Shown in pieces: positions 18,635 to 35,942 of a DNA stretch of 64,000 nt. The stretch's first letter is position 1. Every line of letters starts with the position of its first letter. The stretch comes from Candidatus Poriferihabitaceae bacterium (lineage in GTDB: Bacteria; Pseudomonadota; Gammaproteobacteria; Arenicellales; Poriferihabitantaceae), in the NCBI GenBank assembly GCA_965206445.1, contig CBDBJR010000002.1:1065422-1129421 (forward strand), read 5' to 3'. The position numbers and the translations under genes are program-made. Below the pieces are notes generated by a model that saw only the letters and a program-made list of their open reading frames with translations, was not told the origin of the DNA and searched no databases.

Positions 18635-18650
18635 CTGCGGCAATGAAGAT

Positions 18651-19977: not shown

Positions 19978-21060
19978 TTGTTGTTGACGCCGGGGCCGTT
20001 GTCTACCAGCGACGGCGTGCGAGCGGAAATGCTGCGTGATTGGTGCACCTGGGATGATGACTACAACATCGGCGTGGTGCAAAAAATCCGCCGGCGTCTG
20101 GTCGAACTGGCGGGCAAAGGAGACTATACCGCTGTATTGATGCAAGGCAGCGGCACCTTTGCGATGGAGTCGGTTATCGGCTCCTCGATTCCACGCGATG
20201 GAAAATTATTGTCGATTGTAAACGGAGCCTACGGACGGCGCATTGTCACGATTGCCGAGATGCTGGGTATTGCGGTTACGGTGATGGACGGCGGCGAGCG
20301 CTGGTATCCGAGCGGCGAAGAAGTTGCCGCCGTCCTTCGTGATGATAAAGCCATCAGCCATATTGCGGTCGTCCACGTGGAGACCACCACCGGCATGCTC
20401 AATCCGGTGTCCGACATTTGCGCCGCCGCCAAAGACGCAAATAAAGTTGCGATTGTCGATGCGATGAGTAGTTTTGGCGGCATCCCGATGGAGCTCGCCG
20501 CAATCGGGGCGGATTTTATGGTCAGTAGTGCAAACAAATGTTTGCAAGGAGTGCCGGGTTTTGGTTTTATCATTGCCGAGCGTGGCGCACTGTCGGCGAC
20601 CAAAGGACTGGCGCGCTCCCACAGTCTGGACCTGTATGACCAATGGAAGACCATGGAGGAGCAAAATGGCAAGTGGCGTTTTACCTCTCCGACCCACACG
20701 GTGCGCGCTTTCCTGCGCGCACTGGATGAGCTGCAAGCCGAGGGCGGTGTTGACGCGCGCTATGCACGTTATGCGCAAAACCACGACATTTTGGTGAGCG
20801 GTATGCGCGACCTGGGCTTCGCCACGCTGCTGCCTGACGCACATCAATCGCCGGTCATTACCGCTTTCCTCAATCCCGATTCCCCGGACTTTGAGTTTGT
20901 TCGGTTTTACGCCGCGTTGAAAAAAGCGAGGTTTGTTATTTACCCCGGCAAAGTGACCGATGCCGAGACGTTTCGCATCGGTAATATCGGCGACGTTCAT
21001 CCCGCCGACATGCACCGCTTGCTGGATGCCGTTGCCGCCGCCAGATATTGGGACAATTAA
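19978..21060 (+). CDS. phnW: 2-aminoethylphosphonate--pyruvate transaminase
   Basis: [28 protein letters not shown]... is the typical PhnW/class-V aminotransferase N-terminus, with [12 protein letters not shown] as the PLP-Lys region. TTG start at 19978 (no upstream in-frame ATG seen). Confidence 0.85.
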
Positions 21061-21078
21061 CTCGCCGCCGATAAGGGG

Positions 21079-22212: not shown

Positions 22213-22772
22213 GACCGACACACGATACCGCTTTGGAGTACATCCATGCGCTATTTGATGCGCGGGGCGCGGACGCCTATTTTGGCGAAGACGTAACCAT
22301 AGCCGAGCACATGCTGCAAACCGCCCACTTCGCCGAACAGGGCGGCGCCGAGGAAACGCTGGTTGTCGCCGCGCTGCTGCACGATGTCGGGCACCTCAAC
22401 AGCGAGTTTGGCGATGACTATATTGAGCAGGGCGTGGATAACCGGCACGAGAATGCGGGCAGCATCGCGCTGTCGCCGTTCTTTCCGCAGGCGGTTACCG
22501 AGCCGATTCGCCTGCATGTCGCTGCTAAAAAATACTTGTGCGCGACGGCCCCGGTGTATTATAAAAACCTGTCCGACGCATCCAAACGCACGCTGGAACT
22601 GCAGGGCGGCGTGATGAACGAGGCGCAGCAGCGCGAGTTTGAAAGCAATGCGTATTCCGAGGCGGCGGTAAAACTGCGTTATTGGGACGATGCCGGCAAA
22701 ATCCCGGGGCTGCGAGCAGCAGAGTTAGAGCATTACCACGCAATGATCGAGCGAGTGCAAACAACACGATGA
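22209..22772 (+). CDS. HD-domain mixed-valent diiron oxygenase-like protein (PhnZ/TmpB-like C-P bond-cleaving enzyme)
   Basis: 187 aa. HMLQTAHFAEQ...VVAALLHDVGH (HD motif). Size and context match PhnZ/TmpB. ATGA overlap with the dioxygenase gene. Confidence 0.7.
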   Translation: MRPTHDTALEYIHALFDARGADAYFGEDVTIAEHMLQTAHFAEQGGAEETLVVAALLHDVGHLNSEFGDDYIEQGVDNRHENAGSIALSPFFPQAVTEPIRLHVAAKKYLCATAPVYYKNLSDASKRTLELQGGVMNEAQQREFESNAYSEAAVKLRYWDDAGKIPGLRAAELEHYHAMIERVQTTR

Positions 22773-22923
22773 ATGCCGCCTGTTTCCGGAAATTCGACTA
22801 TACATTCGTCATGATTGCCATTGGCATGATCACTGCAATCTGGGTCACCCGGAACAGGGCGGCGCCGATTACAGACCGTTTTACACTTTTTTTTTTTCAA
22901 CACACTACTATGAGGACAAAGCC

Positions 22924-23961
22924 ATGAGAAATTTCTTCACTTCAATTCGCCGAGCAGGATTTGCCTGCGCGTTGCTGGTCTCCGCCCTGGCGGTCGCCCC
23001 GCTGGCATTAGCGGAAGAGCTGCTGGTGTATACGGCAATAGAGGCCGATACGTTGGAGGAGTACAAAAACACCTTCAACCAGGCGCACCCTGATATTGAT
23101 ATCACTTTTGTGCGCGATTCCACCGGCATTATTACCGCCAGACTGCTTGCGGAAAAAGACAATCCGCACGCCGATGTTGTCTGGGGACTGGCGGCGACCA
23201 GTTTGCTGGTGCTGGGAAACGAAGGCATGCTGCATCCTTACGCCCCCCAGGGCGTGGATAAGCTGGATGCCAAGTTTGTTGACAAAAGCGATCCGCCGGT
23301 GTGGACCGGTATGGATGCGTGGGTGGCATCCATCTGTTACAACACCATCGAGGCGAAAAAGCACAATCTGCCCAAACCGACTTCGTGGAAGGATTTGCTT
23401 CAGCCCGTATATAAAGGGCATTTGATTATGCCCAATCCGGCGTCTTCCGGCACGGGGTTTCTCGATGTATCGAGCTGGCTGCAACTGTTCGGTGAAAGCG
23501 GCGGCTGGGAATATATGGACGGCTTGCACGCAAACATCGCCCGCTACACGCACTCCGGTTCCAAGCCATGCAAACTGGCGGCATCCGGTGAAATTCCGAT
23601 CGGCATCTCGTTTGCGTATCGTGCGGCGAAATCCAAAAATGCAGGGGCGCCGCTGGACATCGTCATTCCGTCCGAAGGCATTGGCTGGGACCTGGAAGCC
23701 AGCGCAATCATCAAGGGCACCGGAAAACTGGCGGCCGCAAAAAAACTGGTTGACTGGTCCATTTCCGAAGAAGCCAACCGCATGTATAACAAGTATTATG
23801 CGGTGGTCGGGTATCCCGGGGTTGCGGCAGAGGTCAAAAACTATCCGCCCAACGTCGCCGCGAAAATGATCGAAAATGATTTTGCCTGGGCCGCCAACAA
23901 CAGGAAAAAAATCCTGGCGGAATGGAGCAAACGGTATGATGGTAAGTCGGATCCCAAGTGA
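22924..23961 (+). CDS. phnS: 2-aminoethylphosphonate-type ABC transporter substrate-binding protein (iron/AfuA-like fold)
   Basis: 345 aa with Sec signal (ACALLVSALAVAPLALA). Body resembles the AfuA/PhnS family. First gene of the SBP-ATPase-fused-permease trio next to phnWX. Confidence 0.7.
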   Translation: MRNFFTSIRRAGFACALLVSALAVAPLALAEELLVYTAIEADTLEEYKNTFNQAHPDIDITFVRDSTGIITARLLAEKDNPHADVVWGLAATSLLVLGNEGMLHPYAPQGVDKLDAKFVDKSDPPVWTGMDAWVASICYNTIEAKKHNLPKPTSWKDLLQPVYKGHLIMPNPASSGTGFLDVSSWLQLFGESGGWEYMDGLHANIARYTHSGSKPCKLAASGEIPIGISFAYRAAKSKNAGAPLDIVIPSEGIGWDLEASAIIKGTGKLAAAKKLVDWSISEEANRMYNKYYAVVGYPGVAAEVKNYPPNVAAKMIENDFAWAANNRKKILAEWSKRYDGKSDPK

Positions 23962-25052
23962 CTGCATCGCCCTCGTCATTGGACAGTGAAGATAGTTTCC
24001 TGATCCTTGACAGCCTGGTTAAAAAATTCGGTCCGGAGATTGCCGCGTTAAGCGGCGTCTCCTTATCGATTCGCCGGGGTGAGTTTGTTTGTTTTTTAGG
24101 CCCATCGGGATGCGGTAAGACGACATTGCTGCGTCTTATCGCGGGCCTGGATTATCAGACCTCGGGGCGCATCTGGCAGGGTGGGCGCGATATTTCCTGG
24201 CTGCCGCCGCAGCATCGTGACTTTGGAATTGTTTTTCAATCCTATGCGTTGTTTCCCAATCTGACCGTAGCGGACAACATCAGCTACGGACTGGTTAACC
24301 AAAAAGCGAAAAAAGAAACGATTGCCGGGCGGGTTGACGAACTGCTGCAACTCGTTAATTTGTCTGCGCACCGGCATAAATATCCCTGGCAATTATCCGG
24401 TGGCGAACAACAGCGGGTTGCCCTGGTTCGGGCGCTTGCGATTTCACCGTCATTACTGCTGCTGGACGAGCCGTTATCGGCGCTGGATACGCAGGTGCGC
24501 GCCTATCTGCGCACCGAAATCCGGGCGCTGCAAAAACACCTGGGGGTCACGACCATCATGGTCACGCACGACCAGGAGGAGGCGATGACCATGGCCGACC
24601 GCGTGGTGGTGATTGACCGTGGCAGCATAAAACAAATCGGCACACCGGAAGAAATTTATCGAAATCCCGCTGATGTTTTTGTTGCCGGTTTTATCGGGGT
24701 CATCAACCTGCTGCCTTGTCGCGTGGTTGAGGACGGGGCAGTCGAAATTTGCGGCATCAAATTGCATTGTCCGGGTGCCTCGGGGGCAGGCAAGGAAGCA
24801 CAAATCGCCATCCGGCCGGAGGACATAATCGTGCACGCCAAAGCGCCCGCCAACAACGGCCTTGCCGTTTGCGTGGAAAAAATCGAGTTTCTCGGCGCAT
24901 TTTCCCGAGTGCATCTGGCGCACCGGGACGGGCCGGTTTTTATTGCCGATTGCGCACGGAGTATGATGCACGATTTTCCCGCCGCCCAAGGGCAAACCGT
25001 GCACATAAGCATTCTGCCCGAGCACCTTCGTTTATACCCTGCCGCATCATAA
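23958..25052 (+). CDS. phnT: 2-aminoethylphosphonate-type ABC transporter ATP-binding protein
   Basis: GPSGCGKTT, LSGGEQQRVALVRAL, LLLLDEPLSALD, MVTHDQEEA, plus a C-terminal TOBE-like domain. GTG start overlaps the previous stop. Confidence 0.8.
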   Translation: MTASPSSLDSEDSFLILDSLVKKFGPEIAALSGVSLSIRRGEFVCFLGPSGCGKTTLLRLIAGLDYQTSGRIWQGGRDISWLPPQHRDFGIVFQSYALFPNLTVADNISYGLVNQKAKKETIAGRVDELLQLVNLSAHRHKYPWQLSGGEQQRVALVRALAISPSLLLLDEPLSALDTQVRAYLRTEIRALQKHLGVTTIMVTHDQEEAMTMADRVVVIDRGSIKQIGTPEEIYRNPADVFVAGFIGVINLLPCRVVEDGAVEICGIKLHCPGASGAGKEAQIAIRPEDIIVHAKAPANNGLAVCVEKIEFLGAFSRVHLAHRDGPVFIADCARSMMHDFPAAQGQTVHISILPEHLRLYPAAS

Positions 25053-25107
25053 AGCGGCCAATACCGGGTATTTCTCTCGTGTTGACTCTCTTGTCGTTGA
25101 TCCTCTT

Positions 25108-26802
25108 GTGTTAGGCCGGCACTATTGGCGCGGCGTGTTGCGGGCATACGGCAATCAGCCGTGGTCGTGGGTCGCGCTGGTGGTTGTCGCGGTGGGCATG
25201 TTTGTGACGATTGTCATGCCGCTCTACAGCATGCTGATCAAGAGCGTGCAAGACCGTACCGGCGCATTTATCGGGATGGGTAATTTTGCCGAGTACCTGC
25301 AAAACCCGGCGCTGTTTAACTCGATTTTCAATTCGCTGTTCGTTGCGGTGTCGGCTACCGTGATCGCCGTCGTGCTGGCGTTTCTGTATGCGTATGCTCT
25401 GACCAGAACCCGCATCCCGGGGAAAAATGTATTTGGCGCGATTGCAATTATCCCGTTGTTATCGCCGTCGCTGTTGCAGGCCATCAGTCTGATTTACCTG
25501 TTTGGCAATCAAGGCATCATAAACGAAGTGCTGCAGGGGCGCAGCATATACGGGCCGATTGGAATTATTGCCGGGCTGTCAATGTGGTCGTTTCCGATGG
25601 CGTTGATCATTATCAAAGCATCGATGTCGGCCAGCGATGGGCGGCTGTATGAATCCGCCATCTCGATGCGGACCGGCGCGGTGCGGGTGTTTTTTACTAT
25701 CACGCTGCCCGGCGTCAAATACGGGCTGATTAGCTCTTTGTTTGTCATCTTTACGCTCACCTTTACCGACTTTGGTGTGGCAAAAGTAATCGGCGGCAAT
25801 TATCAGGTGCTGTCAACCGATTTGTTCAAACAAGTCATCGGCCAGCAAAATTTTCAAATGGGTGCGGTAGTCGGCTTGATGTTGTTGCTGCCGGCGGTGT
25901 TGTCTTTTTTAGTCGACCGGCATGCGCAACGAAAACAAATATCCATGTTCAGCTCCCGCTCGGTTCCTTATGTGCCGCGTCAGAATAAGCTGCGGGACGG
26001 CGTGTATTTTGTATATTGCTCGCTAATCGCTTTTGTGCTTGTCGGCGTGCTGGCTATATCGGCATTTGCGTCGCTGGTGGCATTCTGGCCCTACAACATG
26101 AGCATTTCACTCGCCAACTACAACTTCGACATTATGGACGGCGGCGGTTGGGGCGCCTACTACAATTCCATCGTCATGTCGTTTGGGGTTGCTATATTTG
26201 GCACCGTTTTTATTTTTATTACCGCCTATCTGGTCGAAAAGATTCGCAGTTTTCCCGTATTGCGCGCATCGATACAATTGCTGGCACTGCTGCCGATGGC
26301 TGTGCCCGGTTTGGTTTTAGGGCTGTCTTACATTTTCTTTTTTAACGCCCCCGGCAATCCGCTGCATTTTTTATACGGCGGCATGGCAATTCTTGTTATC
26401 AGCAGCATCGTCCATTACTACAGTGTCGGCTATCTAACCTCGATTGCTGCTTTGAAACAAATCGACCCCGAATATGAATCTGTCGGCGCCTCGCTAAAAG
26501 TGCCGATGTACAAAACATTTTTTCGAGTCAGTATGCCATTGTGCCTGCCGGCGATTTTCGATGTCTCCACCTATCTGTTCATGACCGCAATGACCACGGT
26601 ATCCGCCGTTATATTTCTGTATTCTCCCCGTACCCAACTGGCCTCTATTGCGGTGATTAATATGGAAGGCGCGGGCGACGTTGCGCCGGCCGCCGCGATG
26701 GCGATGATTATTGTGCTGACCACCGCATCGATTCGTATTTTGCACTGGGGCTTGACGCGAAAAATCAGCGCCCGCCTGCTGGCGTGGAGCGGGCAAAAAT
26801 AA
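25108..26802 (+). CDS. 2-aminoethylphosphonate-type ABC transporter permease (fused double-domain, PhnU/PhnV-like, FbpB-type)
   Basis: 564-aa, ~12-TM protein with two permease halves. GTG start. Confidence 0.8.
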   Translation: MLGRHYWRGVLRAYGNQPWSWVALVVVAVGMFVTIVMPLYSMLIKSVQDRTGAFIGMGNFAEYLQNPALFNSIFNSLFVAVSATVIAVVLAFLYAYALTRTRIPGKNVFGAIAIIPLLSPSLLQAISLIYLFGNQGIINEVLQGRSIYGPIGIIAGLSMWSFPMALIIIKASMSASDGRLYESAISMRTGAVRVFFTITLPGVKYGLISSLFVIFTLTFTDFGVAKVIGGNYQVLSTDLFKQVIGQQNFQMGAVVGLMLLLPAVLSFLVDRHAQRKQISMFSSRSVPYVPRQNKLRDGVYFVYCSLIAFVLVGVLAISAFASLVAFWPYNMSISLANYNFDIMDGGGWGAYYNSIVMSFGVAIFGTVFIFITAYLVEKIRSFPVLRASIQLLALLPMAVPGLVLGLSYIFFFNAPGNPLHFLYGGMAILVISSIVHYYSVGYLTSIAALKQIDPEYESVGASLKVPMYKTFFRVSMPLCLPAIFDVSTYLFMTAMTTVSAVIFLYSPRTQLASIAVINMEGAGDVAPAAAMAMIIVLTTASIRILHWGLTRKISARLLAWSGQK

Positions 26803-26849
26803 ACCGAATAGTGCTATCAAATCGCTATTCACCATCGGCCAAATAGAGT

Positions 26850-27737
26850 ATGCCGCTTTCACACGCACATCTGCGCTCCTTTCACGCGGTCGCTACCCAG
26901 GGCAGTTTCACCAAAGCGGCGGAGATACTGCACATCACCCAGCCGACGCTGTCGGGGCAGGTCAAGGAGCTGGAAAAAAGATACGGCGTAAAGCTGTTCA
27001 GCCGCCACGGCCGCCGGGTTGAGTTGACCGAGCTGGGGCGCGCTGCTCTGGCGATAACCAGCCAGCTGTTTCACTACCAGGAAGAAGTCGAACAATTGCT
27101 GCTGTCGGCGCGCGGGCTGACGACCGGCGGGCTCAGGGTAGGGGCCGATTCACCCTATATTATTACCCCGCTGCTGGCGCGGTTTCAGCGGCGCTATCCC
27201 GGCATTCAGATTTCCATACAGTATGGCAATTCCGAGCAGGTGATGAAATGGCTTGAACTCGGACGCTGCGATATCGCCATCGTGCCGAACGCACCGATGG
27301 AGGACGATCGGCTGGACGCCCTGCCGCTGGCATCGGATCAACTGGTGTTGTTCGTCTCCGGCGAACACCCGTGGGCGGCGCGCCGCACGGTGGCCATCGA
27401 AGACCTGGTCGGGCAGCGAATCATCCTGCGGGAGCCGGGCTCGCGCACCCGCGCAATTTTTGAGACAGCCTTGTCCGAGTGCGGCGTGCAGCTGACCGAG
27501 CGCATGGAAATCGGCAGTCGAGAAGGCGTACGCGAAGCGGTGGCGGCCGGATTTGGCGTCGGTGTGGTCTCGGAAAAAGAATTGGGCGGCGACCTCCGGT
27601 TCCGCACCCTCAAAATAACCAACGTCGACCTGACCCACTCGGAATTCGCCATTTGCCGCAAGCAGGGCCGCGCGGTGCGGGTAACCGGTGCGTTTTTTGA
27701 ATTGGTCGCAGAGAGTGTCGGTCGGGACGTAAAATAA
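26850..27737 (+). CDS. LysR-family transcriptional regulator (probable phosphonate-locus regulator)
   Basis: MPLSHAHLRSFHAVATQGSFTKAAEILHITQPTLSGQVKELEKRYGVKLFSRHGRRVELTELG is an HTH_1 domain, followed by a LysR substrate-binding domain. Confidence 0.9.
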   Translation: MPLSHAHLRSFHAVATQGSFTKAAEILHITQPTLSGQVKELEKRYGVKLFSRHGRRVELTELGRAALAITSQLFHYQEEVEQLLLSARGLTTGGLRVGADSPYIITPLLARFQRRYPGIQISIQYGNSEQVMKWLELGRCDIAIVPNAPMEDDRLDALPLASDQLVLFVSGEHPWAARRTVAIEDLVGQRIILREPGSRTRAIFETALSECGVQLTERMEIGSREGVREAVAAGFGVGVVSEKELGGDLRFRTLKITNVDLTHSEFAICRKQGRAVRVTGAFFELVAESVGRDVK

Positions 27738-27826
27738 GCCCCCTTGTGTCGAGTAGTCCTTGCCTCGGCCTGCAAACCCCACTGCAATGCGGCTTTCAGC
27801 AACTGGTTGATTGCCAAAGGTGCCGG
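27651..27826 (+). repeat. Direct repeat copy A (last ~87 bp of the LysR gene + IS right-end fragment)
   Basis: Aligns by eye with 31901-32075 (offset ~4250 bp, ~90% identity, one 3-nt and one 2-nt indel). Confidence 0.85.
27750..27826 (+). mobile_element. IS right-end fragment (truncated a few bp before the terminus)
   Basis: GCCTCGGCCTGCAAACCCCACTGCAATGCGGCTTTCAGCAACTGGTTGATTGCCAAAGGTGCCGG, cf. intact IS ...GCCTCGGTCTGCAAACTCCGATACAATTCGGCTTCCAACAACTGCCACAGTGCCAAAGGTATTGG. Confidence 0.6.
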
Positions 27827-27891
27827 TTCAATGTGTTCGAATTCGCTGCGGGGGTTAGCCCGCCGCTTTCTTATTGCATTTTATTTATGCC

Positions 27892-28875
27892 TCATTTGCT
27901 ATGCCTTCGGGCGATGAATTGGGCATGCGCCGCTTCGCCGCCGTTGTGCCAGGTGCCGAATAATTGATCCAACGGTGCGCGTGGATTGCCATAGTTGACC
28001 ATGAAGTAACGGTGGTGCAACTGATGGTGGTGGGTGCCGGCGGGAAACACACAACGCTTGCCGATTTTCACTTTCGCAAACCCGCAGTGTGAGAATGCCG
28101 GACCCAGCCCCGTAAAAAATCCGGTGGCAATGATGAGAATGGGGTCGACGGGTATCACCCACCACAACATCACCGGGCTGAAATACAGTACATGCTCAAG
28201 CGGGTGCATGGAAATCCCCGACCATGGACCCACATTCACATTGCGGTGATGCAACGCATGAGCGATGCGATACAGAGGCGGCCAGTGCAGGCAACGATGA
28301 ATCCAGTAGAAATGAAATGAGCCCCAGAAAAACATCACCAGAGTCATGCCCAGCAGATATCCGCTATGCGAATTCCAAGCGGGGGCGTGAATGCCGCCGC
28401 TGGCAACCCACCACAGCGTCATCGCTTCGTATAGCGACCAGATCAAACTACCGCTTACCAGGCTCCAGAACATATTATCCTTTACTTGATTGCCCCACAA
28501 AAAGGCGGGATTTTTCTTATGCAACCAGCGATCGTTAAATTTGAATTGCTTAGCCTGTCCGCGGCGGATATACAGATACCAATGTAATCCGCCCGCCACC
28601 AAACCGAGCAAGATCGCATTGCGCAGCCAAATCATGAGCATCCAACCCGGTTGCAAGCTGCTCATTACGGATAAGTCCGGCGTCAGAAATTTCCAACTCA
28701 ACGCCGCCAGTCCGAGAAAAAAGAGGCCATACGGGAAGACCAAATCTCTCCAGATCCACAGCAAACAGGCTTTGCACCGTAGCGGTAAGGAATAAATGGG
28801 TGGTAGCGATTCGGGCGACGGACGATATTCACCACCGAGGATAGAGGTATTTTCAAGTGTTTTGATGGTCAACAT
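27892..28875 (-). CDS. Fatty acid hydroxylase / sterol desaturase family membrane protein
   Basis: 327 aa, multi-TM, with His boxes HRCLHWPPLYRIAHALHHRNV and HHQLHHRYF. Confidence 0.8.
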   Translation of the reverse strand: MLTIKTLENTSILGGEYRPSPESLPPIYSLPLRCKACLLWIWRDLVFPYGLFFLGLAALSWKFLTPDLSVMSSLQPGWMLMIWLRNAILLGLVAGGLHWYLYIRRGQAKQFKFNDRWLHKKNPAFLWGNQVKDNMFWSLVSGSLIWSLYEAMTLWWVASGGIHAPAWNSHSGYLLGMTLVMFFWGSFHFYWIHRCLHWPPLYRIAHALHHRNVNVGPWSGISMHPLEHVLYFSPVMLWWVIPVDPILIIATGFFTGLGPAFSHCGFAKVKIGKRCVFPAGTHHHQLHHRYFMVNYGNPRAPLDQLFGTWHNGGEAAHAQFIARRHSK

Positions 28876-28931
28876 AATTCACCCCCGTTGGTGAGTTGGT
28901 TGATAAAAATGGTTTATTAAAAAATAACCTA

Positions 28932-28970
28932 TAAAAGCGGCGGCGATTATGCCAACCCACCGCCGCTTTT
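28932..28970 (-). terminator. Hairpin terminator between the GMC oxidoreductase and desaturase genes (symmetrical, could act in both directions)
   Basis: AAAAGCGGCGG-cgattatgccaaccca-CCGCCGCTTTTT: 11-bp stem flanked by A and T runs, 20 nt downstream of the GMC stop. Confidence 0.6.
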
Positions 28971-28989
28971 TAGTAACGCTAACTCGCGA

Positions 28990-30561
28990 TTATATGTTGC
29001 CGCGTGACACTTGTTTAGCAATGTAATCCGCTTGCCGCAACGCCAACGCCATGATTGTGAGAGTTGGATTTTCCGCGCCGCCGGTCGTAAATACACTGCC
29101 ATCCGAGACGAACAGATTGGATATATCGTGCGCCTGCCCCCACTGGTTTACTACGCCATCACCAGACTTTTTGCTCATGCGATTAGTGCCGAGATTGTGC
29201 GTGGATGGATACGGCGGGGTTGGCAAAGTTCGCGTTGCACCAACGGCATCATACACCGCTGAACCTTGCCGATATGCATGATTGCGCATTGCAATGTCGT
29301 TTGCGTGATCATCAAAATTAACATTCGGCACCGGCAAACCATACTGATCTTTCTCGGTTTTATGCAAACTGATGCGGTTGCGCTCTTGTGGCATGTCTTC
29401 ACCAACCAGCCACATACCGGCCATGTTCTCGTATGAATCCATAGCCGAAGCGAACTCACGACCCCAGGCCCCAGGATCGAGAAACGCAGCCATAAATGGA
29501 ATCCCCAATGACAAAGTTTCCATTTCATAACCGCCAACAAAACCGCGCGACGGATCATGCCTGGCTTCGTCTTGAATGATGCCGGCCATGGTGGTGCCAC
29601 GATACATGTTAACCGGCTGGTCGAAAACCCCATAGACCGAACCGGTCATGTGTCGCATGTAGTTTTTGCCGACCATGCCGGATGAGTTTGCCAATCCATC
29701 CGGGAACATGTTGGAAGCGGAATTTAGTAACAAACGCGGACTTTCGATTGAGTTGCCAGCAACGCAAACTGCGCGCGCTTTCTGCATGTGCATGTTGCCG
29801 TCTTCGTCGGCATATAAAACGCCGGTTGCTTTTCCCTTGCTGTCATGCTCGATTTTCAGAACTTGCGAATTTGGGCGCACTTCAAGGTTGCCCGTTTTTT
29901 CACCTTTGGGAATTTCGGCAACCAAGGTACTCCACTTTGCGCCGGTTTTGCATCCTTGAAAACAAAAACCAAGTTGTTGACAAGGGGCTCGACCGTCGCG
30001 CGTTTCTGAATTAATCGCCATGCGCCCGGTGTGACACTGCTTGTAGCCAAGCAAGTCAGCACCTTTCTTCATGACCTTGAAATTGTTGTTGCCGGGCAAG
30101 CCGGGAATCCCATTCGTGCGGGTTACACCCATACGGTCTTCCGCTTTGTCGTACCACGGTTCCAATTCTTTTAGCGTGACTGGCCAATCCAGTAAATTCG
30201 CCCCGGCAATTTCGCCGTAGTGGGTTTTGGATCTGAATTCGTGGTCTTGCAATCGCAGGCTGGCACCCGCCCAATGCACTGTAGAACCGCCGACTGCTTT
30301 TACAATCCACGCCGGTAATCCGGAAAAATCGCGTGATACGCGCCACCTTCCGGAAGTTGTGCGTTTGTCCAGCCAGGATATTTGTGAGAAACTTCCCCAC
30401 TCATCATTCTGGAAGTCCGCTGTTTCATGGCGCCCGCCCGCTTCTAAAATCACGGCCTTGACACCTTGCATAGCCAGTTCAGCACCCACCGTTCCACCAC
30501 CTGCGCCGGAACCGACCACTACCACGACCTTATCGTCGTTCAAATTGAATTTTGTGTTCAT
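28990..30561 (-). CDS. GMC-family FAD-dependent oxidoreductase (large subunit of a gluconate-2-dehydrogenase-like flavoprotein)
   Basis: 523 aa. VVVVGSGAGGGTVGAELA is the ADP-binding motif. GMC-like C-terminal domain. Preceded by a Tat-signal small subunit gene. Confidence 0.85.
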   Translation of the reverse strand: MNTKFNLNDDKVVVVVGSGAGGGTVGAELAMQGVKAVILEAGGRHETADFQNDEWGSFSQISWLDKRTTSGRWRVSRDFSGLPAWIVKAVGGSTVHWAGASLRLQDHEFRSKTHYGEIAGANLLDWPVTLKELEPWYDKAEDRMGVTRTNGIPGLPGNNNFKVMKKGADLLGYKQCHTGRMAINSETRDGRAPCQQLGFCFQGCKTGAKWSTLVAEIPKGEKTGNLEVRPNSQVLKIEHDSKGKATGVLYADEDGNMHMQKARAVCVAGNSIESPRLLLNSASNMFPDGLANSSGMVGKNYMRHMTGSVYGVFDQPVNMYRGTTMAGIIQDEARHDPSRGFVGGYEMETLSLGIPFMAAFLDPGAWGREFASAMDSYENMAGMWLVGEDMPQERNRISLHKTEKDQYGLPVPNVNFDDHANDIAMRNHAYRQGSAVYDAVGATRTLPTPPYPSTHNLGTNRMSKKSGDGVVNQWGQAHDISNLFVSDGSVFTTGGAENPTLTIMALALRQADYIAKQVSRGNI

Positions 30562-30575
30562 TGTGTTGTCCTCGC

Positions 30576-31127
30576 TTATAACCAGTCGATGTCATTAAAA
30601 CCGCGGCGAATGTATCCGCCTTTGGATGCGGATTCGCCCTCGTAGCCAAAAATCGGCCATGCGTCCTGGTTGTTGTAGATTCCTGTTACCAGAGTGGATC
30701 GCAATTTCTGGAAAAATGCATCACTTTGCATGGCGCGCAGAATGTCTACGCGCTGTATTTCCCAACCCACATCAAGATAATCCACATCGTGCGATTTTTG
30801 CGCCGCTTGATTAAGGGCGGATACGCCGCCTTCCAGCAAACTTTTTACACCATCATCATTCACAGCATCGGCATCAAAACCTTCTACGACTTTCGCATAA
30901 AAGGAATCGGCAAGTTGGTCATGCGGATATATATCACGACACGCTTGCACGAGAGTTGCGAACGATTCTGGCTTAAGCGATTTGGCGGTGGCTGACCACG
31001 CGCTTTGTGCGCCGATAATCATGCCGGAGGGCAGCACCGACATTGCTATTAATGCACCTCCATCAGTCAGCACCTTGCGGCGCCCGCTATCGAAATTGTG
31101 ACTACCATTAAGTCGTGTTGGTTTCAT
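30576..31127 (-). CDS. Gluconate 2-dehydrogenase subunit 3-family protein (Tat-signal small subunit)
   Basis: MKPTRLNGSHNFDSGRRKVLTDGGALIAMSVLP... ATG at 31127 is preceded by GGAG. Paired with the GMC flavoprotein. Confidence 0.7.
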   Translation of the reverse strand: MKPTRLNGSHNFDSGRRKVLTDGGALIAMSVLPSGMIIGAQSAWSATAKSLKPESFATLVQACRDIYPHDQLADSFYAKVVEGFDADAVNDDGVKSLLEGGVSALNQAAQKSHDVDYLDVGWEIQRVDILRAMQSDAFFQKLRSTLVTGIYNNQDAWPIFGYEGESASKGGYIRRGFNDIDWL

Positions 31128-31189
31128 GTTGTACTCCGTTAAGAAAGTGGATTTTACATAAGATATTTGCATTGCAAGTAAACGACCGT

Positions 31190-31585
31190 TTAGACATAAC
31201 GACCGTGACTCTGCAACACCTCAATTTTATAGCCGTCAGGATCTTGTATAAAGAAAAATCTGGCCATTAATTCCCCGTCACGATGGAATTCCTTTACATC
31301 CGTTGGATGCATACCCTCACCAACAAGGCGCGCATGCTCGCTATCAACATCGGCAACGCAGACCGCCAGGTGGCCGTACCCACTGCCGTGCGTATAGGGT
31401 TCTTGCTGGTTGTGATTAATAGTCAGTTCAATTTCAAAATCGTTCTCTTCGTTTTTCAGATACACCAAAGTGAACCCGTCAAACTCAAACCGACTTTTCA
31501 CCCCAAGATTGAATGCCTTAAGGTAAAAGTCCACTGACTTATTTTCGTCAAAGACGCGGATCATCGAATGAATTGCTTTTGCCAT
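31190..31585 (-). CDS. Glyoxalase I / VOC-family lyase (lactoylglutathione lyase-like)
   Basis: 131 aa. HSMIRVFDENKSVDFYLKAFNLG...GYGHLAVCVADVD...FIQDPDGYKIEVLQ is the typical GloA pattern. Confidence 0.8.
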   Translation of the reverse strand: MAKAIHSMIRVFDENKSVDFYLKAFNLGVKSRFEFDGFTLVYLKNEENDFEIELTINHNQQEPYTHGSGYGHLAVCVADVDSEHARLVGEGMHPTDVKEFHRDGELMARFFFIQDPDGYKIEVLQSHGRYV

Positions 31586-31900
31586 GGTTTTCTCGCGGTT
31601 GGTCGTTATAAATTGCTATCTTGTTAATGCAGCCGAATAATCGGGTTGTATGCATATAAAAAAATCTGCACGCGCACATTGAATGTCAAAAAATCCGCTT
31701 TTTGCAAGCGATTTGCAAGGTTTTTTGCAGCAGTATTGAATAATAATTGGCAAATTTACGCTTTTTTGCCAAATACCCCAAAAACCACCCCCAACCCCAC
31801 CATCAAAAACACAAAAAAGCGGCGGAGACTTTCGCCCTCGCCGCCATTTTATAACCCGTGATGTAGATAATCTCAAACCGAAACGGGTTGCTGGTGGGAA

Positions 31901-32075
31901 ATTTGCCGCAAGCAGGGCCGCGCGGTGCGGGTAATCGGTGCGTTTGAATTGGTCGCGGAGCGTATCGGCCGGGACGTAAAATAAGCCCCCACTGGTGTCG
32001 AGTAGCCCCTGCCTCGGCCTGTAAACCCCGCTATAACGCGGCTTCCGGCAACTGGTTGATTGCCAAAGGTGCCGG
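31901..32075 (+). repeat. Direct repeat copy B (5'-truncated LysR tail + IS right-end fragment)
   Basis: See copy A. The LysR part here is only the last ~85 bp of the gene (…ICRKQGRAVRVIGAFELVAERIGRDVK*). Confidence 0.85.
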
Positions 32076-32084
32076 AGCTATACA
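31998..32084 (+). mobile_element. IS right-end fragment retaining the terminus (...GCCAAAGGTGCCGGAGCTATACA)
   Basis: Same alignment as 27750-27826, but it continues to a ...CTATACA end like the ...CCATACA / ...TTATACA ends of the other copies. Confidence 0.6.
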
Positions 32085-32168
32085 ACGCTTCTTAAAAGCG
32101 AGTTTTGTCATCCACAACCTGCCTCCGCAGTCTGTAAGCGGGGGCGGGTTAGTACCGCGTTTTACTGG

Positions 32169-32188
32169 ATTCCCGCTTGCGCGGGAAT
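32169..32188. repeat. REP-like palindromic element ATTCCCGC-TTGC-GCGGGAAT (followed by GACGG)
   Basis: Perfect 8-bp stem with a 4-nt loop. The GCGGGAATGACG-type motif is a common intergenic palindrome in proteobacteria. Confidence 0.5.
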
Positions 32189-32477
32189 GACGGTTCTATT
32201 TCATACCCATCCCACCACCGTTTCCGCGCGGCACGCTGCTGCTTGACGAATACAACAGCAATACCGGCAAGCGCATCACTTATCCGTACCCTGCGTGGAG
32301 TGATACCGATTATCGGCATCGATAATCGGCATTGCCGGGCGTAAAGTGCAGGCAGGCGGATTGACAGGGCAGGGCAGAATTGCCCCCGGCAAATGCGGTA
32401 TATTCAGGGTGCCCGGCTTGCAACCCGGGCGGGGTACGGGCTGTCCGGGGCGGAGCGCAACCGCCATCGATAACGCG

Positions 32478-33322
32478 CACAGCGGGGAGAACAGGCAGTG
32501 ACACAACCGGCACAACAGGCACCGCAAACGCGGGCATCGCGCCCCGCGTGCGCCGCCTCGCCGGCCGCCGGCAGTTATGACGTGGTGCTCGTGGGCGGGG
32601 CGATCATGGGCGCATCGACGGCGTGGTTCCTTACCGACAACCCCGATTTCGACGGCTCGGTGCTGGTGATAGAGCGCGACCCGAGTTACGAGAAGTGTTC
32701 GACGGCGCACACCAACAGCTGCATGCGACAACAGTTTTCGACCGAACTGAATGTGCGCATCTCGCAGTTCGCCGCCGACTTCGTCAACCACCTGCGGCGT
32801 TACATGGGCGGCGACCGCCGCGTGCCCGAGCTGGCGATTCGCAGTTTTGGGTATATGTACCTCGCGGATTCGCCGGACTTCGCCGCGGTGCTGCGCGCGA
32901 ATCAGCAAGTGCAGCGGGCGGCCGGCGCGGCCACGCAATTAATGACGCCGGACGAGATCAAGCGCAACTACCCGTTCTACAACGTCGACGACATTGTGCT
33001 GGGCTCGATCAACCTGGTGAACGAAGGCCTCTGGGACGGTACCGCGGTATTCGATTGGTGGCGCCGCTCGTCAAGCGAGCGCGGGGTGGAATACATCGCC
33101 AACGAAGTGGTGGCGATGACGAAAAATGCCGCCGGCACGCGGGTCGAAAGCGTCACGCTGGCCACGGGTGAGGTGATCGCGTGTGGGCAGGTGGTCAACA
33201 CCTCCGGGCCGCGCGCCGCGCGCACCGTAGGCATGGCCGGCATCACCGTGCCGGTGGAGCCGCGCAAACGTTTTTCCTGGGTGTTTTCCGCCGAGCGGCC
33301 GCTGGACCGCGACTTGCCGCTG
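32478..33322 (+). repeat. 845-bp duplication, copy 1
   Basis: Collinear with 41690-42534 (offset 9212, no indels, about 7 mismatches by eye). Confidence 0.9.
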
Positions 33323-33361
33323 TCATTGCGAAAATTCCAATCGCTGGAATTCGCATTATAA
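32498..33361 (+). pseudogene. 3'-truncated duplicate of the FAD-dependent oxidoreductase gene (first 275 codons + 12 foreign codons)
   Basis: Same N-terminus as 41710-42969 (VTQPAQQ...SYDVVLVGGAIMGASTAWFL). Homology stops after ...DRDLPL, and the tail SLRKFQSLEFAL* is unrelated. Confidence 0.8.
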
Positions 33362-33421
33362 CGCAGGGCGGGGCAAGCGACTCGCCCCGCCAAATTCGTC
33401 CGTCCTTTTATTTTGCCGACG

Positions 33422-35083
33422 CTATGCGGCTTGCGCCGCCTCTTTCATTGGAGGCGGAATAGCGGCGACAGCGGAAGAATCCTCCCGCAGCGATTTAATC
33501 ACGCCCCAAGTTATCAGCAGCAGAATAATGCTGACCGGAAAAGCGGCGGCAATGGATGCCGTCTGCAACGCTCCGAGTCCGCCGGCAACCAGCAGCACGG
33601 CGGCGACGAGTCCTTCGCCCAATCCCCACATGATGCGGAATTTCTGCGGCGGGTTGTCGTTGCCCATGCTGAGCATCGTGGTTATCACCAGCGTGCCGGA
33701 GTCGGACGAAGTGATGAACCATGTGGATATGAGGAATGTCGCCAATGCCGCAATCGCCCAAGTCGCCCAGCCGAAATTCATCGCTCCTATCGTTGTGTAG
33801 AGGGCGGTGGATATATCCTCGTTGACCGCGCCGATGATGTCAGTGTCGGTCTGGAACAGCGAGAGCAGGGCGGATTGTCCGGCGCCGGCCACGACGGTCG
33901 GCCCCTCGCTGAATAATTCCAAATGCAATGCGCTGCCGCCGAAAATCGCCAGCCAGAAAAAAGCGATGGAAGTCGGCACGAACATCACCCCGACCATAAA
34001 TTCCCGAATCGTCCGGCCACGTGAAATTCGGGCGATGAACATTCCGACGAAAGGCGCCCACGAAATCCACCAGCCCCAATAAAAGATTGTCCATGCGCCC
34101 TGCCACGCCGACGATTTTTCGCCGCCCGCCGTCCAGAATCCCATCGGCACGACATTCCACAGATAGTCGCCGACAGTGGTGATGAAAAACCCAAGCAGCC
34201 ATTTTGTCGGTCCGATCAGCAAAAACGCCCCGACCAAAATTATGCTGAGATAAATGTTCCATTCGCTGATGATGCGGATTCCCTTGCCGACGCCGGAAAC
34301 CGCCGACAGAGTCGCCACCGCCGAAATGACAGCAATAAGAATAACCTGCGTCATCACCGTATTGTCGATATCAAACAGATATTTCAGCCCGGCTCCCATC
34401 TGGCTCACGCCGAGCCCCAGCGAGGTGGCGACGCCGAACACCGTGCCGAAAACAGCCAGCAAATCGACGGCGTTACCGATTGGCCCGTAGATTTTGTCGC
34501 CGATAATCGGATGCAGGGCGCTGCGCAAAGTCAGCGGCAATTTTTTCCGAAAGCCGAAATACGCCAAGCACAGCCCGACCATCACATAAACCGCCCAGCC
34601 GTGGAATCCCCAATGGAAATAAGTCACGCGCATGGCGATGATGGCGGCGGATTCCGACTGCGGAGCAACGCCCGCTTGGTCTTGAAACGGATTCCCTTGA
34701 AAATGGTAAATCGGCTCGGCGATGGACCAGAACAGCAAACCGATTCCAACGCCGGCCGAAAACAGCATCGAAAACCACGAAAAATTTGAAAATTCGGGGC
34801 GCGAGTCGTCGTCGCCGAGACGAATGCTGCCGAAGCGGCTGAACATCAAGTACAGCGTGGCGAAAAACACCACCGACACGGTGGAAATGTAATACCAGTT
34901 GAGCGTCGATTCCAGCCAGCCGCGCACGGCGCCGTAAATGGAATTGGCGAACTCCACATTGAGTATCGTGAAAATCACGAACGCCGCCACAATGCCTTTG
35001 GCGGCGAGTGCCATGCCGGGATGCAGGCCGTTCCAAAATCCGGCGGTTGCCACGCCGATGCGCGGCTGAGGGGTGCTATTCAT
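33422..35083 (-). CDS. BCCT-family (betaine/carnitine/choline) transporter
   Basis: 553 aa from the ATG at 35083, which is preceded by GGAGG (MNSTPQPRIGVATAGFWNGLHPGMALAAKG...). Contains the Trp-rich BCCT-type block WTIFYWGWWISWAPFVGMFIARISRGRTIREF. Confidence 0.9.
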   Translation of the reverse strand: MNSTPQPRIGVATAGFWNGLHPGMALAAKGIVAAFVIFTILNVEFANSIYGAVRGWLESTLNWYYISTVSVVFFATLYLMFSRFGSIRLGDDDSRPEFSNFSWFSMLFSAGVGIGLLFWSIAEPIYHFQGNPFQDQAGVAPQSESAAIIAMRVTYFHWGFHGWAVYVMVGLCLAYFGFRKKLPLTLRSALHPIIGDKIYGPIGNAVDLLAVFGTVFGVATSLGLGVSQMGAGLKYLFDIDNTVMTQVILIAVISAVATLSAVSGVGKGIRIISEWNIYLSIILVGAFLLIGPTKWLLGFFITTVGDYLWNVVPMGFWTAGGEKSSAWQGAWTIFYWGWWISWAPFVGMFIARISRGRTIREFMVGVMFVPTSIAFFWLAIFGGSALHLELFSEGPTVVAGAGQSALLSLFQTDTDIIGAVNEDISTALYTTIGAMNFGWATWAIAALATFLISTWFITSSDSGTLVITTMLSMGNDNPPQKFRIMWGLGEGLVAAVLLVAGGLGALQTASIAAAFPVSIILLLITWGVIKSLREDSSAVAAIPPPMKEAAQAA

Positions 35084-35175
35084 GGTTGTGCCTCCGTTTT
35101 TTATTAGCGAAGTTGAATTATTACCATAATTCTCCCCGCTGTCAAATAACCGGACGGGGAAATTTGAGGGAGAAA

Positions 35176-35673
35176 TTAAATGTTGAGGATGATTTTTACA
35201 TCGTCCGGAAAGTATCGCTTTTCTAAATTGTCGCCCGGGCCAATGCGGTCGGCGACTAAAAAGTCGCCTCCCGAATCCAATGCAATCAGCGGATAATGCC
35301 ATATACCACGACGAAAATTTATTCCGCGCCCCGGCTCAACAATAAACGCCCGCAGCGATTCCGCCAAAATTTCATCGCCAAGCGGCGCGACCACAACCGC
35401 GAATCTTCCCGCCGTCATCGGCACAAACGCCTGCGAACCCAAGGGATGGCGCTCCAGCATTTCAATTCGCAGCGGCAATTTTCGGGCGGCGGCGCGAAAA
35501 ATGCTTAGTGCGGCAACGCCGTCTTTCGCCGCTTCCACGCGGGCGAGGTCGTTGAATCGCCATGCAGTGCCGTCATTAACGGAAAAATGCGGGCGTCCGT
35601 CGGCTTCTATGACATCGCCGAAAGGCGCGAAAGATTCGCTCGTGAGAGGCAGCGGCGACAGCGAAATTTTCAT
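35176..35673 (-). CDS. allA: Ureidoglycolate lyase-family protein
   Basis: 165 aa. LTSESFAPFGDVIE...LERHPLGSQAFVPM...RGIWHYPLIAL matches the AllA/ureidoglycolate hydrolase family. Confidence 0.75.
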   Translation of the reverse strand: MKISLSPLPLTSESFAPFGDVIEADGRPHFSVNDGTAWRFNDLARVEAAKDGVAALSIFRAAARKLPLRIEMLERHPLGSQAFVPMTAGRFAVVVAPLGDEILAESLRAFIVEPGRGINFRRGIWHYPLIALDSGGDFLVADRIGPGDNLEKRYFPDDVKIILNI

Positions 35674-35699
35674 TTTTCACGCCGACCCGGCCCCGCTAC

Positions 35700-35942
35700 G
35701 CCCCGCCCCGGCCCGTACCGCCCCATTGGTCGCCGCGCCCCGGTGCCGCACGCGCAAAATCCGCAGACTCAAACACCACCGCCCGCCACCGCTGTTCCCC
35801 AGCCTGGCCCTGTTCAACCGGAAAATGGCCGCGTGGCTGGTGCCTGTAACACGCCATTCTCCACCATAGCCTCGGTCTGCAACCCCCGCCACAATGCCGC
35901 TTTCAGCAACTGCCTGATTGCCAAAGTCGCCGGGCCTGCATA
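35700..35942 (+). mobile_element. 5'-truncated, internally deleted derivative of the IS (no DDE core), right terminus retained
   Basis: Reads ...PAPARTAPLVAAPRCRTRKIRRLKHHRPPPL|FPSLALFNRKMAAWLV.. and then, frameshifted, HSLGLQPPPQCRFQQLPDCQ. Compare the intact ...HAPARISPTGRLKPLLRTRKTRKPKHYRSPPL[~117 codons]LFTDLALFNRKMAAWLVEYNTVIPHHSLGLQTPIQFGFQQLPQCQ. Confidence 0.75.

Follow-up and report, generated by a model that had tools for sequence, protein, structure and literature searches.

Long direct repeats around a chromosomal insert recall several described outcomes of recombination and transposition. Campbell-type (single-crossover) integrants include integrated suicide plasmids and episomes for which a cloned or captured piece of the chromosome supplies the homology. 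Homology-facilitated illegitimate recombination is known from the transformable bacteria Acinetobacter and Streptococcus pneumoniae, and its products are usually deletions or very short duplications. In IS26-type translocatable units and pseudo-compound transposons, segments are interleaved with IS copies of the same orientation, and a unit joins next to an existing IS copy. Here we describe a 4,074-bp insert (27827-31900) between two direct repeats, A and B, in a 64-kb window (the whole stretch of 64,000 nucleotides that was analysed) of the genome of a Poriferihabitaceae sponge symbiont. We conclude that the locus is a real but ordinary old recombination scar and not a new kind of mobile element.

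Results

The left repeat begins inside a LysR-family regulator gene (26850-27737, plus strand; Pfam HTH_1 and LysR_substrate) of the aminoethylphosphonate-catabolism type, which scored 315 bits against TIGR03339 phn_lysR (cut-off 341) and is the last gene of a phnW-tmpA-tmpB-phnS2-T-UV cluster. Self-BLAST aligned 27651-27826 with 31901-32075 at 88.8% identity over 178 columns with one 3-nt and one 2-nt indel (E 2e-55), in agreement with the preliminary description, which had given about 90% and the same indels. The repeat of most strains begins at 27650, one base further left. Copy A (27651-27826, plus strand) consists of 87 nt of LysR tail including the stop codon (27651-27737), a 24-nt spacer that is not IS-derived (27738-27761), and a 65-nt remnant of an IS481-family right end without the terminal 9 nt (27762-27826). 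Copy B (31901-32084, plus strand) consists of a 5′-truncated LysR stub, the spacer and the IS481 right-end remnant with its tip complete. The translated LysR tails read ...ICRKQGRAVRVTGAFFELVAESVGRDVK in copy A and ...ICRKQGRAVRVIGAF-ELVAERIGRDVK in copy B. Both junctions confirmed the earlier observation that the last 9 nt or so of the IS, AGCTATACA (32076-32084), are retained in copy B and missing from copy A; the left junction thus lies inside the IS inverted repeat, 9 nt short of that tip. The earlier anatomy of LysR tail, stop codon and IS right end was correct, except that the IS share is 65-74 nt plus a spacer, slightly less than the 75 nt claimed. The 65-nt remnant matches fragment C at 84.6% (E 7e-11) and the corresponding end of an intact IS481-family copy, at 40606-41689, at 78%; this intact copy served as the reference for the IS ends. 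The repeats have no function beyond permitting loop-out loss of the insert.

The earlier estimate of about 10% divergence holds for the repeat as a whole but not uniformly along it. Fixed differences between A and B numbered 0 in the 87-nt LysR tail versus 8 in the 89 nt of spacer and IS sequence, of which 5 were in the 65-nt IS part and 3 columns, including a CA indel, were in the spacer. Even divergence would give about 3.5 fixed differences in the LysR tail (P roughly 0.03 for the 0 observed), although these counts are small numbers. A and B copies from different strains also have sequence variants in common.

Domain matches and translations agreed with the earlier reading of four minus-strand genes in the insert. 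Every one of the products is an enzyme; domain and family profiles revealed no integrase or transposase among them, and neither a tRNA nor an Rfam match was found at the insert. From repeat A to the hydroxylase stop codon (27827-27891) the left edge contains a weak hairpin on the plus strand with a T-run after it (27848-27880; folding z-score only −1.3). The gene nearest repeat A (27892-28875) forms its own transcription unit and encodes a 327-aa membrane protein of the fatty-acid hydroxylase/sterol desaturase family (PF04116, E 1e-22). Its best non-self homologues are 63-68% identical, and two of the close ones (63-66%; L015 and L016, on large metagenome contigs) adjoin an aldehyde dehydrogenase gene, which precedes them. 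The other three genes are those of a VOC/glyoxalase-I-like protein of 131 aa (31190-31585, PF00903; 121 bits against NF050074 GloA-like, cut-off 165), which comes first, a 183-aa small subunit with the twin-arginine signal SGRRKVL (30576-31127), and a 523-aa GMC-family large FAD subunit (28990-30561, GMC_oxred_N and GMC_oxred_C) of a dehydrogenase of the Tat-exported type with a small and a large subunit. The small subunit matched PF13618 (Gluconate_2-dh3) weakly, at 17.9 bits, but all six of its orthologues examined matched this family (best E 7e-7), and in Azospirillum the orthologue bears the annotation Tat pathway signal protein. The AT-rich region previously described as a control region (31586-31900, minus strand) lies upstream of the VOC gene and has 42% GC; a hairpin with T-runs occupies 31818-31845, and there is a promoter-like site at 31772-31743.

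A strong Rho-independent terminator on the minus strand (28929-28973), with a 17-bp stem followed by a U-run, lies 3′ of the GMC gene and separates it from the hydroxylase gene. Its fold energy was −28.4 kcal/mol (z −3.7), and 0 of 200 shuffled sequences folded as well. In all seven other genomic contexts that we read (L010-L014, L017 and L018), the VOC, small-subunit and GMC genes occurred without an adjoining hydroxylase gene; an RHH_4 gene was nearby in four of them (L010, L014, L017 and L018), and tblastn found no remnant of such a gene in the AT-rich region. As claimed earlier, the insert is low in GC: its 49.6% is the minimum among all 4-kb windows of the 64-kb window (mean 56.6%, sd 2.7). 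Codon usage was less distinctive. The GC3 z-scores of the GMC, small-subunit and VOC genes (−1.1, −1.8 and −1.6; GC3 0.48-0.54) fall within the range of the window, in which 5 other genes among 58 have equally low GC3, whereas that of the hydroxylase gene (−0.2; GC3 0.63) is host-like. The insert is therefore a mosaic of two transcription units. Because of the terminator, the lack of linkage elsewhere and the host-like GC3 of the hydroxylase gene, it is not the self-contained foreign module that had been proposed. Nor can a foreign origin be read from protein identity, since the GMC subunit is 80-86% identical across many taxa of several phyla; for the three-gene set as a whole, members from several phyla share 75-86% identity.

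All six conspecific genomes sampled, which are about 98.5% identical, have the insert with its two repeats, and the insert is fixed in the species as represented by these six. Beyond the contig described here, the structure recurs in the five other conspecific long-read contigs, which are independent (98.4-98.9% identical), ruling out an assembly artefact. Strain diversity within the insert was 1.3-2.2% in genes and 3% in non-coding sequence, equal to or higher than that of the flanks. Among strains, pN/pS was 0.10 for the hydroxylase and GMC genes and about 0.10 for the VOC gene; with values of about 0.1 in both transcription units, the insert genes are maintained by purifying selection.

In three other Poriferihabitaceae species, whose LysR proteins are 83-88% identical in amino-acid sequence to this one (from MAGs), neither the IS end nor the insert was found beside LysR. 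Homology to these relatives begins only 35 nt before the LysR start codon and stops at its stop codon. Upstream, phnW is the gene divergent from LysR in all three, and the ABC transporter near LysR is convergent and only 53-69% identical. Since gene order around LysR differs there, the absence of the insert beside LysR in these nearest species is weak evidence for acquisition. This absence stands on the side of the preliminary claim of acquisition at this site. No sampled genome had the predicted empty site (LysR, IS end, 32085 onward), as all six conspecifics have the insert and the next relatives differ in gene order; acquisition at LysR is for this reason something that we infer.

The preliminary description had also called the insert an older event of the same kind as a neighbouring 9.2-kb unit. 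Both are inserts flanked by a long duplication of target sequence, and the relative age was borne out. The 845-bp repeats of the 9.2-kb unit (left copy 32478-33322, plus strand; right copy 41690-42534) are 99.2% identical. In strain L009, 31707-33206 is present twice at 97.1% identity. This shows that the second of the two target duplications, that of the 9.2-kb unit, originally comprised at least 31707-33322, including a third copy of the LysR stub and IS end.

Discussion

Our preferred explanation, in which our confidence is about evenly balanced, is an old recombinational insertion that duplicated its target and left a scar now fixed in the species. The pre-existing target would have been a dead IS481 right end just 3′ of the stop codon of the phosphonate LysR gene. 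The 4,074-bp segment would have entered the chromosome 9 nt inside this right end, such that the insert came to be flanked on both sides by the LysR tail, spacer and IS remnant, the 177 nt that lie left of the entry point. Most likely this occurred by a single homologous (Campbell-type) crossover between the chromosome and a circular DNA carrying the 177-nt segment, because this one-step mechanism gives exactly the observed topology; almost equally probable is a homology-anchored insertion with an illegitimate second join, which would end in an identical product. The IS remnant would have served only as part of the homology and not as a transposase substrate. Copy B, a mere stub, would have drifted afterwards, while the LysR-tail halves of A and B were probably held alike by gene conversion, which must be added because simple duplication or crossover predicts an even divergence that is not seen. 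Later, at least 31707-33322, in the region of the BCCT transporter, was duplicated in a second event of the same topology. Against this reading, it postulates a circular donor with the LysR tail and IS remnant, the origin of which needs two illegitimate joins; the host-like GC3 of the hydroxylase gene and the unexceptional GC3 of the other three genes also count against it. As no genome has the empty site, the direction of the event is likewise inferred.

An unlikely alternative, the next in our ranking, is that nothing was acquired and that the block once adjoined LysR. Tandem duplication of the block, its control region, LysR, the spacer and most of the IS remnant would have created the 27826|27827 junction, loss of the first 800 bp or so of the redundant second LysR gene would have created 31900|31901, and the first copy of the block would have been lost when the phosphonate cluster came to adjoin LysR. 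Duplicated segments are indeed found here, namely the 845-bp repeat (99%) and, in L009, the 1.5-kb repeat (97%). The region is rearranged on both sides of LysR relative to other species, LysR genes are often transcribed divergently from an operon, and the GC3 of the hydroxylase gene is host-like. However, three separate events are needed instead of one, it is phnW and not the block that lies upstream of and divergent from LysR in three relatives, no 4-kb stretch of the window is lower in GC than the block, and none of the other genomes read has the two halves linked. The uneven divergence is explained no better.

In a further alternative the repeat is only a by-product of break repair at a pre-existing junction, in which a block already lying between two old IS remnants suffered a break next to the solo remnant B that was mended from the LysR-linked remnant A, copying the LysR tail. 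The tail indeed looks young and the IS part old, and IS remnants are dense in the region, but the counts are small and the non-IS spacer is common to both copies and as diverged as the IS part, which implies that the old homology already reached beyond the IS. We regard this as rather improbable.

The IS481 family itself is active in the species. The intact element (40606-41689, plus strand; transposase ORF 40625-41713, with rve and rve_3 domains) scored 179 bits against NF033577 transpos_IS481, below the 224-bit cut-off yet best among families, and a 96% identical copy is present in other strains at 35145-35150 with a 6-bp target duplication. The IS had no visible catalytic role in the insertion. 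The insert has neither a left IS end (IRL, TGTATAAGCTCAGAAACCTTTGGCAC in the intact element) nor a short target duplication at its borders, and 8.5 kb separate it from the nearest transposase gene. IS481-mediated mobilisation, whether as a one-ended transposition unit with its end at the 32084 tip or as an IS26-like translocatable unit targeting a resident IS, would account for the complete right inverted repeat and tip in copy B, for the activity of the family and for the many right-end fragments in the window, all on the plus strand, but it is very improbable and already disfavoured by the border sequences, as nothing at 27827 resembles a left end (TTCAATGTGTTCG is unlike TGTATAAGCTCAG), only right-end matches lie near the insert, 111 nt of the repeat are non-IS sequence (LysR tail and spacer) that transposition would not duplicate, and the common orientation of the fragments is unspecific, being that of about 85% of the window genes.

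Among known enzymes, the GMC subunit aligned over its full length with the large subunit of Gluconobacter fructose dehydrogenase (7w2j) and the alpha subunit of Burkholderia cepacia FAD-glucose dehydrogenase (6a2u; E 4e-47), and has a Cys-rich motif (PCQQLGFCFQGC) in the corresponding region. The small subunit resembles that of gluconate 2-dehydrogenase and like complexes in its RR signal and its relation to Gluconate_2-dh3. The three genes are a conserved operon predicted to encode a periplasmic FAD dehydrogenase related to the fructose, glucose and gluconate 2-dehydrogenases. They differ from such complexes in that the block has no cytochrome c subunit, the VOC gene is always attached, and the set makes up a separate, highly conserved subfamily, with 75-86% identity across classes.

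As a structure, the locus shares with IS26-type units gene segments interleaved with IS sequences of one orientation, but the IS copies here are dead IS481-family right ends of 65-74 nt, non-IS DNA is part of what was duplicated and no transposase is adjacent. Homology-facilitated illegitimate recombination likewise uses short one-sided homology as an anchor and joins the other end illegitimately, with clean breaks like 31900|31901, although the duplication here is 177 nt. Campbell-type integrants differ in carrying vector or replicon genes, whereas this insert has none, no circular form or empty site was seen, and its repeats are old (the copies have diverged by 4-12%) with a homology of only 177 nt. 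The locus nevertheless has the form of such integrants: a single chromosomal segment stands in direct orientation on either side of the insert, the arrangement calls for no integrase, inverted repeats or short target duplication, and recombination between the repeats can remove the insert again.

Imperfect direct repeats flank the 4-kb block

The block at 27827-31900 lies between two direct repeats, copy A (27651-27826) and copy B (31901-32084). A preliminary description of this DNA had put the repeats at about 90% identity with a 3-nt and a 2-nt indel, and self-comparison of the window bore this out: 27651-27826 and 31901-32075 align at 88.8% identity over 178 columns, with gaps of 3 and 2 nt (E 2e-55). 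Each copy opens with the last 87 nt, including the stop codon, of the LysR gene (26850-27737, plus strand), and the LysR C-terminus is still recognisable in the translation of copy B. A 24-nt spacer follows in each copy. The last 65 nt of the repeat match right-end sequence of three further IS481-family copies, all in the window: fragment C (35791-35933), an intact element (40606-41689) and fragment E (49681-50132). The composition described earlier (LysR tail, stop codon and IS right end) stands, except that the IS part measures 65-74 nt rather than about 75 bp and is preceded by the spacer. Copy B extends via AGCTATACA to the IS tip at 32084 and copy A stops 9 nt short; inspection of the junctions confirmed the claim that copy A lacks the last ~9 IS nucleotides and that copy B has the full terminus. 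The repeat is one contiguous chromosomal segment of 176-177 nt, continuous with the intact LysR gene in copy A.

Among family models, NF033577 (IS481) scored best for the IS, although its 179 bits fall short of the model's 224-bit cut-off. The intact element encodes rve and rve_3 domains and its inverted repeats start TGTAT; the transposase ORF crosses the right inverted repeat and meets a stop codon only in flanking DNA. A 1,084-bp copy of this family, inverted and 96% identical to the window's intact IS, was found in four other strains of the species (contigs L005-L007, and L009 at ~18292-19388), with a 6-bp target duplication in L005-L007, and is absent from the window (35145-35150). This IS is active now or was so recently. 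Degraded fragments were detected by tblastn at 3508-3772, 8499-8582, 9695-9748 and 35672-35815, all in the plus-strand orientation that most of the window's genes share; in the first, an N-terminal piece is joined to a C-terminal one, so that it looks like an internal-deletion derivative. At the 41689-41710 site the right tip lies 20 nt upstream of the GTG start of a DAO oxidoreductase gene, and at the 50132-50146 site 13 nt upstream of the ATG of an S15 peptidase gene. It is possible that the IS end drives outward transcription into these two genes.

Downstream of copy B, a 393-nt non-coding stretch contains ATTCCCGCTTGCGCGGGAAT (32169-32188), a perfect 20-nt palindrome with no second exact copy in the window. 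At first it suggested a Neisseria-type dRS3 repeat at 32169, and thereby Neisseriaceae. We dropped this reading because the nearest relatives are Poriferihabitaceae and the only other match, with 3 mismatches, is at chance level.

The block comprises two gene units

Four minus-strand genes lie between the repeats, as had been described: a VOC/glyoxalase gene (31190-31585), a gene for a 183-aa protein with an RR signal (the small subunit; 30576-31127), a GMC oxidoreductase gene (28990-30561) and an FA_hydroxylase gene (27892-28875). Between the stop codon of the GMC gene and the start of the hydroxylase gene lies a strong terminator (-28.4 kcal/mol, z -3.7). No Rfam element was matched in 27500-32600.

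The GMC large subunit aligns full-length (residues 13-520) with 7w2j_A and 6a2u_B (E 4e-47), and is homologous over its full length to the fructose dehydrogenase (FDH) large subunit and the alpha subunit of FAD-glucose dehydrogenase (FAD-GDH). It has a cysteine motif, PCQQLGFCFQGC (C-x5-C-x3-C), which may correspond to the 3Fe-4S cluster ligands of FAD-GDH. The small subunit has a twin-arginine motif. PF13618 (Gluconate_2-dh3) scored 17.9 bits in the window protein, below the 23.4 cut-off, but was matched in all six sequences when five orthologues were included (best E 7e-7); TAT_signal was matched in two of the six. Neither the single sequence nor a six-sequence profile gave a significant match among solved structures. 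A Tat signal and membership of the PF13618 family are shared with complexes of the FAD-GDH, FDH and gluconate 2-dehydrogenase type, and by analogy the small subunit probably takes the flavoprotein to the periplasm via the Tat pathway. Unlike these complexes, the block encodes no cytochrome c subunit. A literature search with the terms tried returned no paper linking Gluconate_2-dh3 with GMC.

The block had also been described as low in GC. No other 4-kb window has a GC content as low as its 49.6% (mean over windows 56.6%, sd 2.7; z ~-2.6), and the region upstream of the VOC gene has 42% GC. The claim held for this sliding-window measure and less well for GC3, whose z-scores are only -1.1 for GMC, -1.8 for the small subunit, -1.6 for VOC and -0.2 for the hydroxylase; five others of the 58 genes in the window have GC3 as low as the block's.

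The GMC protein has thousands of homologues. Those 80-86% identical are labelled by their sources as Gammaproteobacteria, Acidiferrobacterales, Hyphomicrobiales, Rhodospirillales and Phycisphaerae; because this identity spans several orders and Phycisphaerae, the protein is too conserved to be placed phylogenetically. For the hydroxylase, the best non-self homologues are only 63-68% identical; further down the list, the best matches with a name are labelled Gammaproteobacteria, including one Arenicellales.

In all seven other contexts examined (L010-L014, L018 and L017, which is an Azospirillum chromid) the VOC, small-subunit and GMC genes form a conserved unit, hereafter the trio, and in none of the seven is the hydroxylase beside it. 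L014 alone has a small cytochrome-c-like gene, recognised by a faint Pfam match, ahead of the trio. L010 and L014, which carry the closest trios, share no informative genes with the Poriferihabitaceae loci, and L014 is only ~45% identical in one dehydrogenase that is shared. An RHH_4 (ribbon-helix-helix) gene lies near the trio in four of the seven (L010, L014, L017 and L018), including the Azospirillum chromid; this small gene may encode a dedicated trio regulator. No remnant of an RHH_4 or cytochrome gene was found by tblastn upstream of VOC in the window, whose species lacks this RHH_4 gene. The closest hydroxylase homologues lie directly 3′ of an aldehyde dehydrogenase gene in both contexts recovered (L015 8456-10981 and L016 8494-11017), a pairing that would be consistent with enzymes that cleave an ether or alkyl compound and so release an aldehyde. 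On these large metagenome contigs, genes for an acyl-CoA synthetase and a branched-chain-type ABC transporter are also nearby.

The block is thus a mosaic of two gene units and not one module. The earlier proposal of a single self-contained module fails on the terminator that splits it and on the seven trios without the hydroxylase. The homology searches that had been proposed to settle origin and synteny showed conserved synteny of the trio, whereas taxonomic origin could not be read from GMC identity.

The LysR neighbourhood differs in other species

Upstream of the block lies a phosphonate catabolism cluster (19978-27737) with PhnW (534 bits), TmpA-like and TmpB-like oxygenases that narrowly miss their cut-offs, a PhnS2-type ABC transporter and LysR, which scored 315 bits on the phn_lysR model (cut-off 341). 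This LysR is 83-88% identical in amino acids to the LysR of three Candidatus Poriferihabitaceae MAGs (Gammaproteobacteria, Arenicellales); Poriferihabitaceae MAGs were recovered from a sponge metagenome, according to a data note. In these three other species neither the IS end nor the block is present at LysR and synteny differs: transporter genes, only 53-69% identical, are convergent after LysR. DNA homology runs from 35 nt before the LysR start to ~20 nt before the stop, and the protein alignment reaches the C-terminus in one species (L001). Homology is thus confined to LysR, with no convincing alignment downstream, and both flanks of the gene have therefore been rearranged. Genes beside LysR are only 43-69% identical to those of the three species and differently arranged. 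The comparison suggests that the phosphonate cluster around LysR has been replaced or reshuffled.

All sampled conspecific strains carry the block

A LysR protein search gave five conspecific sequences that cluster at 90% identity; four of them were traced to five contigs, all from one long-read sponge metagenome (ERZ25069326). The contigs are 98.4-98.9% identical to window 16850-35150, and all five carry the block and both repeats. The search for an empty site that had been proposed found none: all six conspecific genomes are occupied, a genome scan with LysR returned only the three other species, with their different synteny, and a metagenome scan with LysR returned nothing. An exact look-up of the window LysR sequence gave no match. 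One contig in a metagenome scan matched the 19-nt LysR-stop/spacer junction and has nothing else in common with the window; we regard it as a chance match.

Strain diversity is 1.3-2.2% in the genes of the block and ~3% in its non-coding DNA, against 0.5-1.2% in the flanks. Since diversity in the block at least equals that of the flanks, the block predates diversification of the species. Synonymous diversity is 4.6-5.7% in the block and DAO fragment (27892-33322) versus 2.0-3.6% in the phosphonate genes and LysR (19978-27737), and the shift to about twofold higher values falls near the LysR 3′ end.

Among the conspecific strains, pN/pS is ~0.10 for the hydroxylase, GMC and VOC genes, indicating that they are functional. 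Split block genes in L007 and L008 raised the possibility of pseudogenisation, which we rejected; long-read coverage of these contigs is only 5x and 8x, and the frameshifts, seen in no other contig, are best read as sequencing errors.

The two halves of the repeat differ in divergence

Fixed differences were scored in an alignment of copies A and B from every strain. The LysR tail (87 nt) has none; A-to-B divergence there is 3.9%, no greater than among B copies (3.4%), and some variants occur both in B copies and in the A copies from particular strains. In contrast, the spacer and IS remnant (89 nt) have 8 fixed columns and an A-to-B divergence of 10-12%. The divergence of about 10% first ascribed to the repeat is thus unevenly spread along it. 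If both halves were of equal age, the tail should show ~3.5 fixed differences, and a count of 0 has a probability of roughly 0.03. Compared with the three outgroup LysR tails, both A and B carry derived changes. The simplest account of this pattern would be that all 177 nt were duplicated once, long ago, and that gene conversion later acted on the tail.

The neighbouring 9.2-kb unit is younger

The neighbouring BCCT/adhesin unit of 9.2 kb is flanked in the window by an 845-bp repeat of 99.2% identity, whose start coincides exactly with the right tip of the intact IS. In L009, 31707-33206 is instead present twice at 97.1% identity (L009 18305-20888). The second copy abuts the inverted IS and includes part of the VOC control region, a third LysR-stub/IS-end copy and the DAO 5′ region. 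This longer copy with its third LysR-stub/IS-end implies that the second duplication was originally longer and came after the 4-kb block was in place, in agreement with the claim that the block is the older event. The second duplication was trimmed differently beside IS copies in different strains. The two events had been called the same in kind; they share the topology of an insert with a long target duplication, but only the older has an IS end within its repeat. The L009 locus is without the adhesin segment. In the window the adhesin gene (36106-40407) encodes a YadA-type trimeric autotransporter of 1,433 aa and has 72-nt tandem repeats and three repeats of ~570-700 nt; its length varies among strains, with 1,650 and 1,669 aa called elsewhere.

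Discussion

The feature is real but ordinary: an old recombination scar, now fixed, that encloses two gene units under selection. It exemplifies how the IS-rich genome of a sponge symbiont reshuffles and keeps small metabolic gene blocks, and it shows that long imperfect direct repeats joining a gene tail to an IS remnant are scars of recombination rather than the ends of mobile elements. The locus reveals no new mechanism. What merits biochemistry, independently of the repeat, is the very conserved, uncharacterised trio of VOC, Tat small subunit and GMC/FeS-type large subunit, usually with RHH_4 nearby, and the hydroxylase/aldehyde-dehydrogenase pair.

The insert lies between direct copies of what stands to the left of its entry point. 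This topology would result from one homologous crossover with a circular DNA, and equally from a homology-anchored insertion with one illegitimate join. We consider these the best explanation, with about an even chance of being correct. The same repeats could have arisen by tandem duplication followed by deletions instead of insertion, which we think unlikely. More doubtful still is a broader proposal, in which dead IS481 right ends fused to host sequence would act as portable homology patches for serial single-crossover capture of circularised segments. The 4-kb block, with its 177-nt duplication, would have come first, followed by the BCCT/adhesin unit, whose duplication measures at least 1.6 kb; if true, an array of unrelated gene blocks would be growing downstream of the phosphonate LysR.

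Transposition, composite or one-ended, from IS481 ends is disfavoured because there is no left end, no short target duplication and no adjacent transposase, and because the repeat holds 111 nt of non-IS DNA. The IS remnants on either side of the block are both right ends, and the sole left inverted repeat in the window is at 40606. The borders (GGTGCCGG/TTCAATG, GGTGGGA/ATTTGCC and, after 32084, ACGCTT) share no short repeat such as the 6-bp target duplication made by this IS. All four products of the block are enzymes, and the nearest transposase gene starts at 40625. Site-specific integration of an integrase-type island is likewise disfavoured, since the block encodes no recombinase domain and the window has no tRNA or tmRNA gene.

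Among known systems, the arrangement that we prefer to explain by a single crossover or a homology-anchored insertion is like that of a Campbell-type integrant, in that direct repeats of a single contiguous piece of the chromosome lie on both sides of the block. Serial capture at homology patches, in turn, would parallel IS26 translocatable units, though with no need of a transposase.
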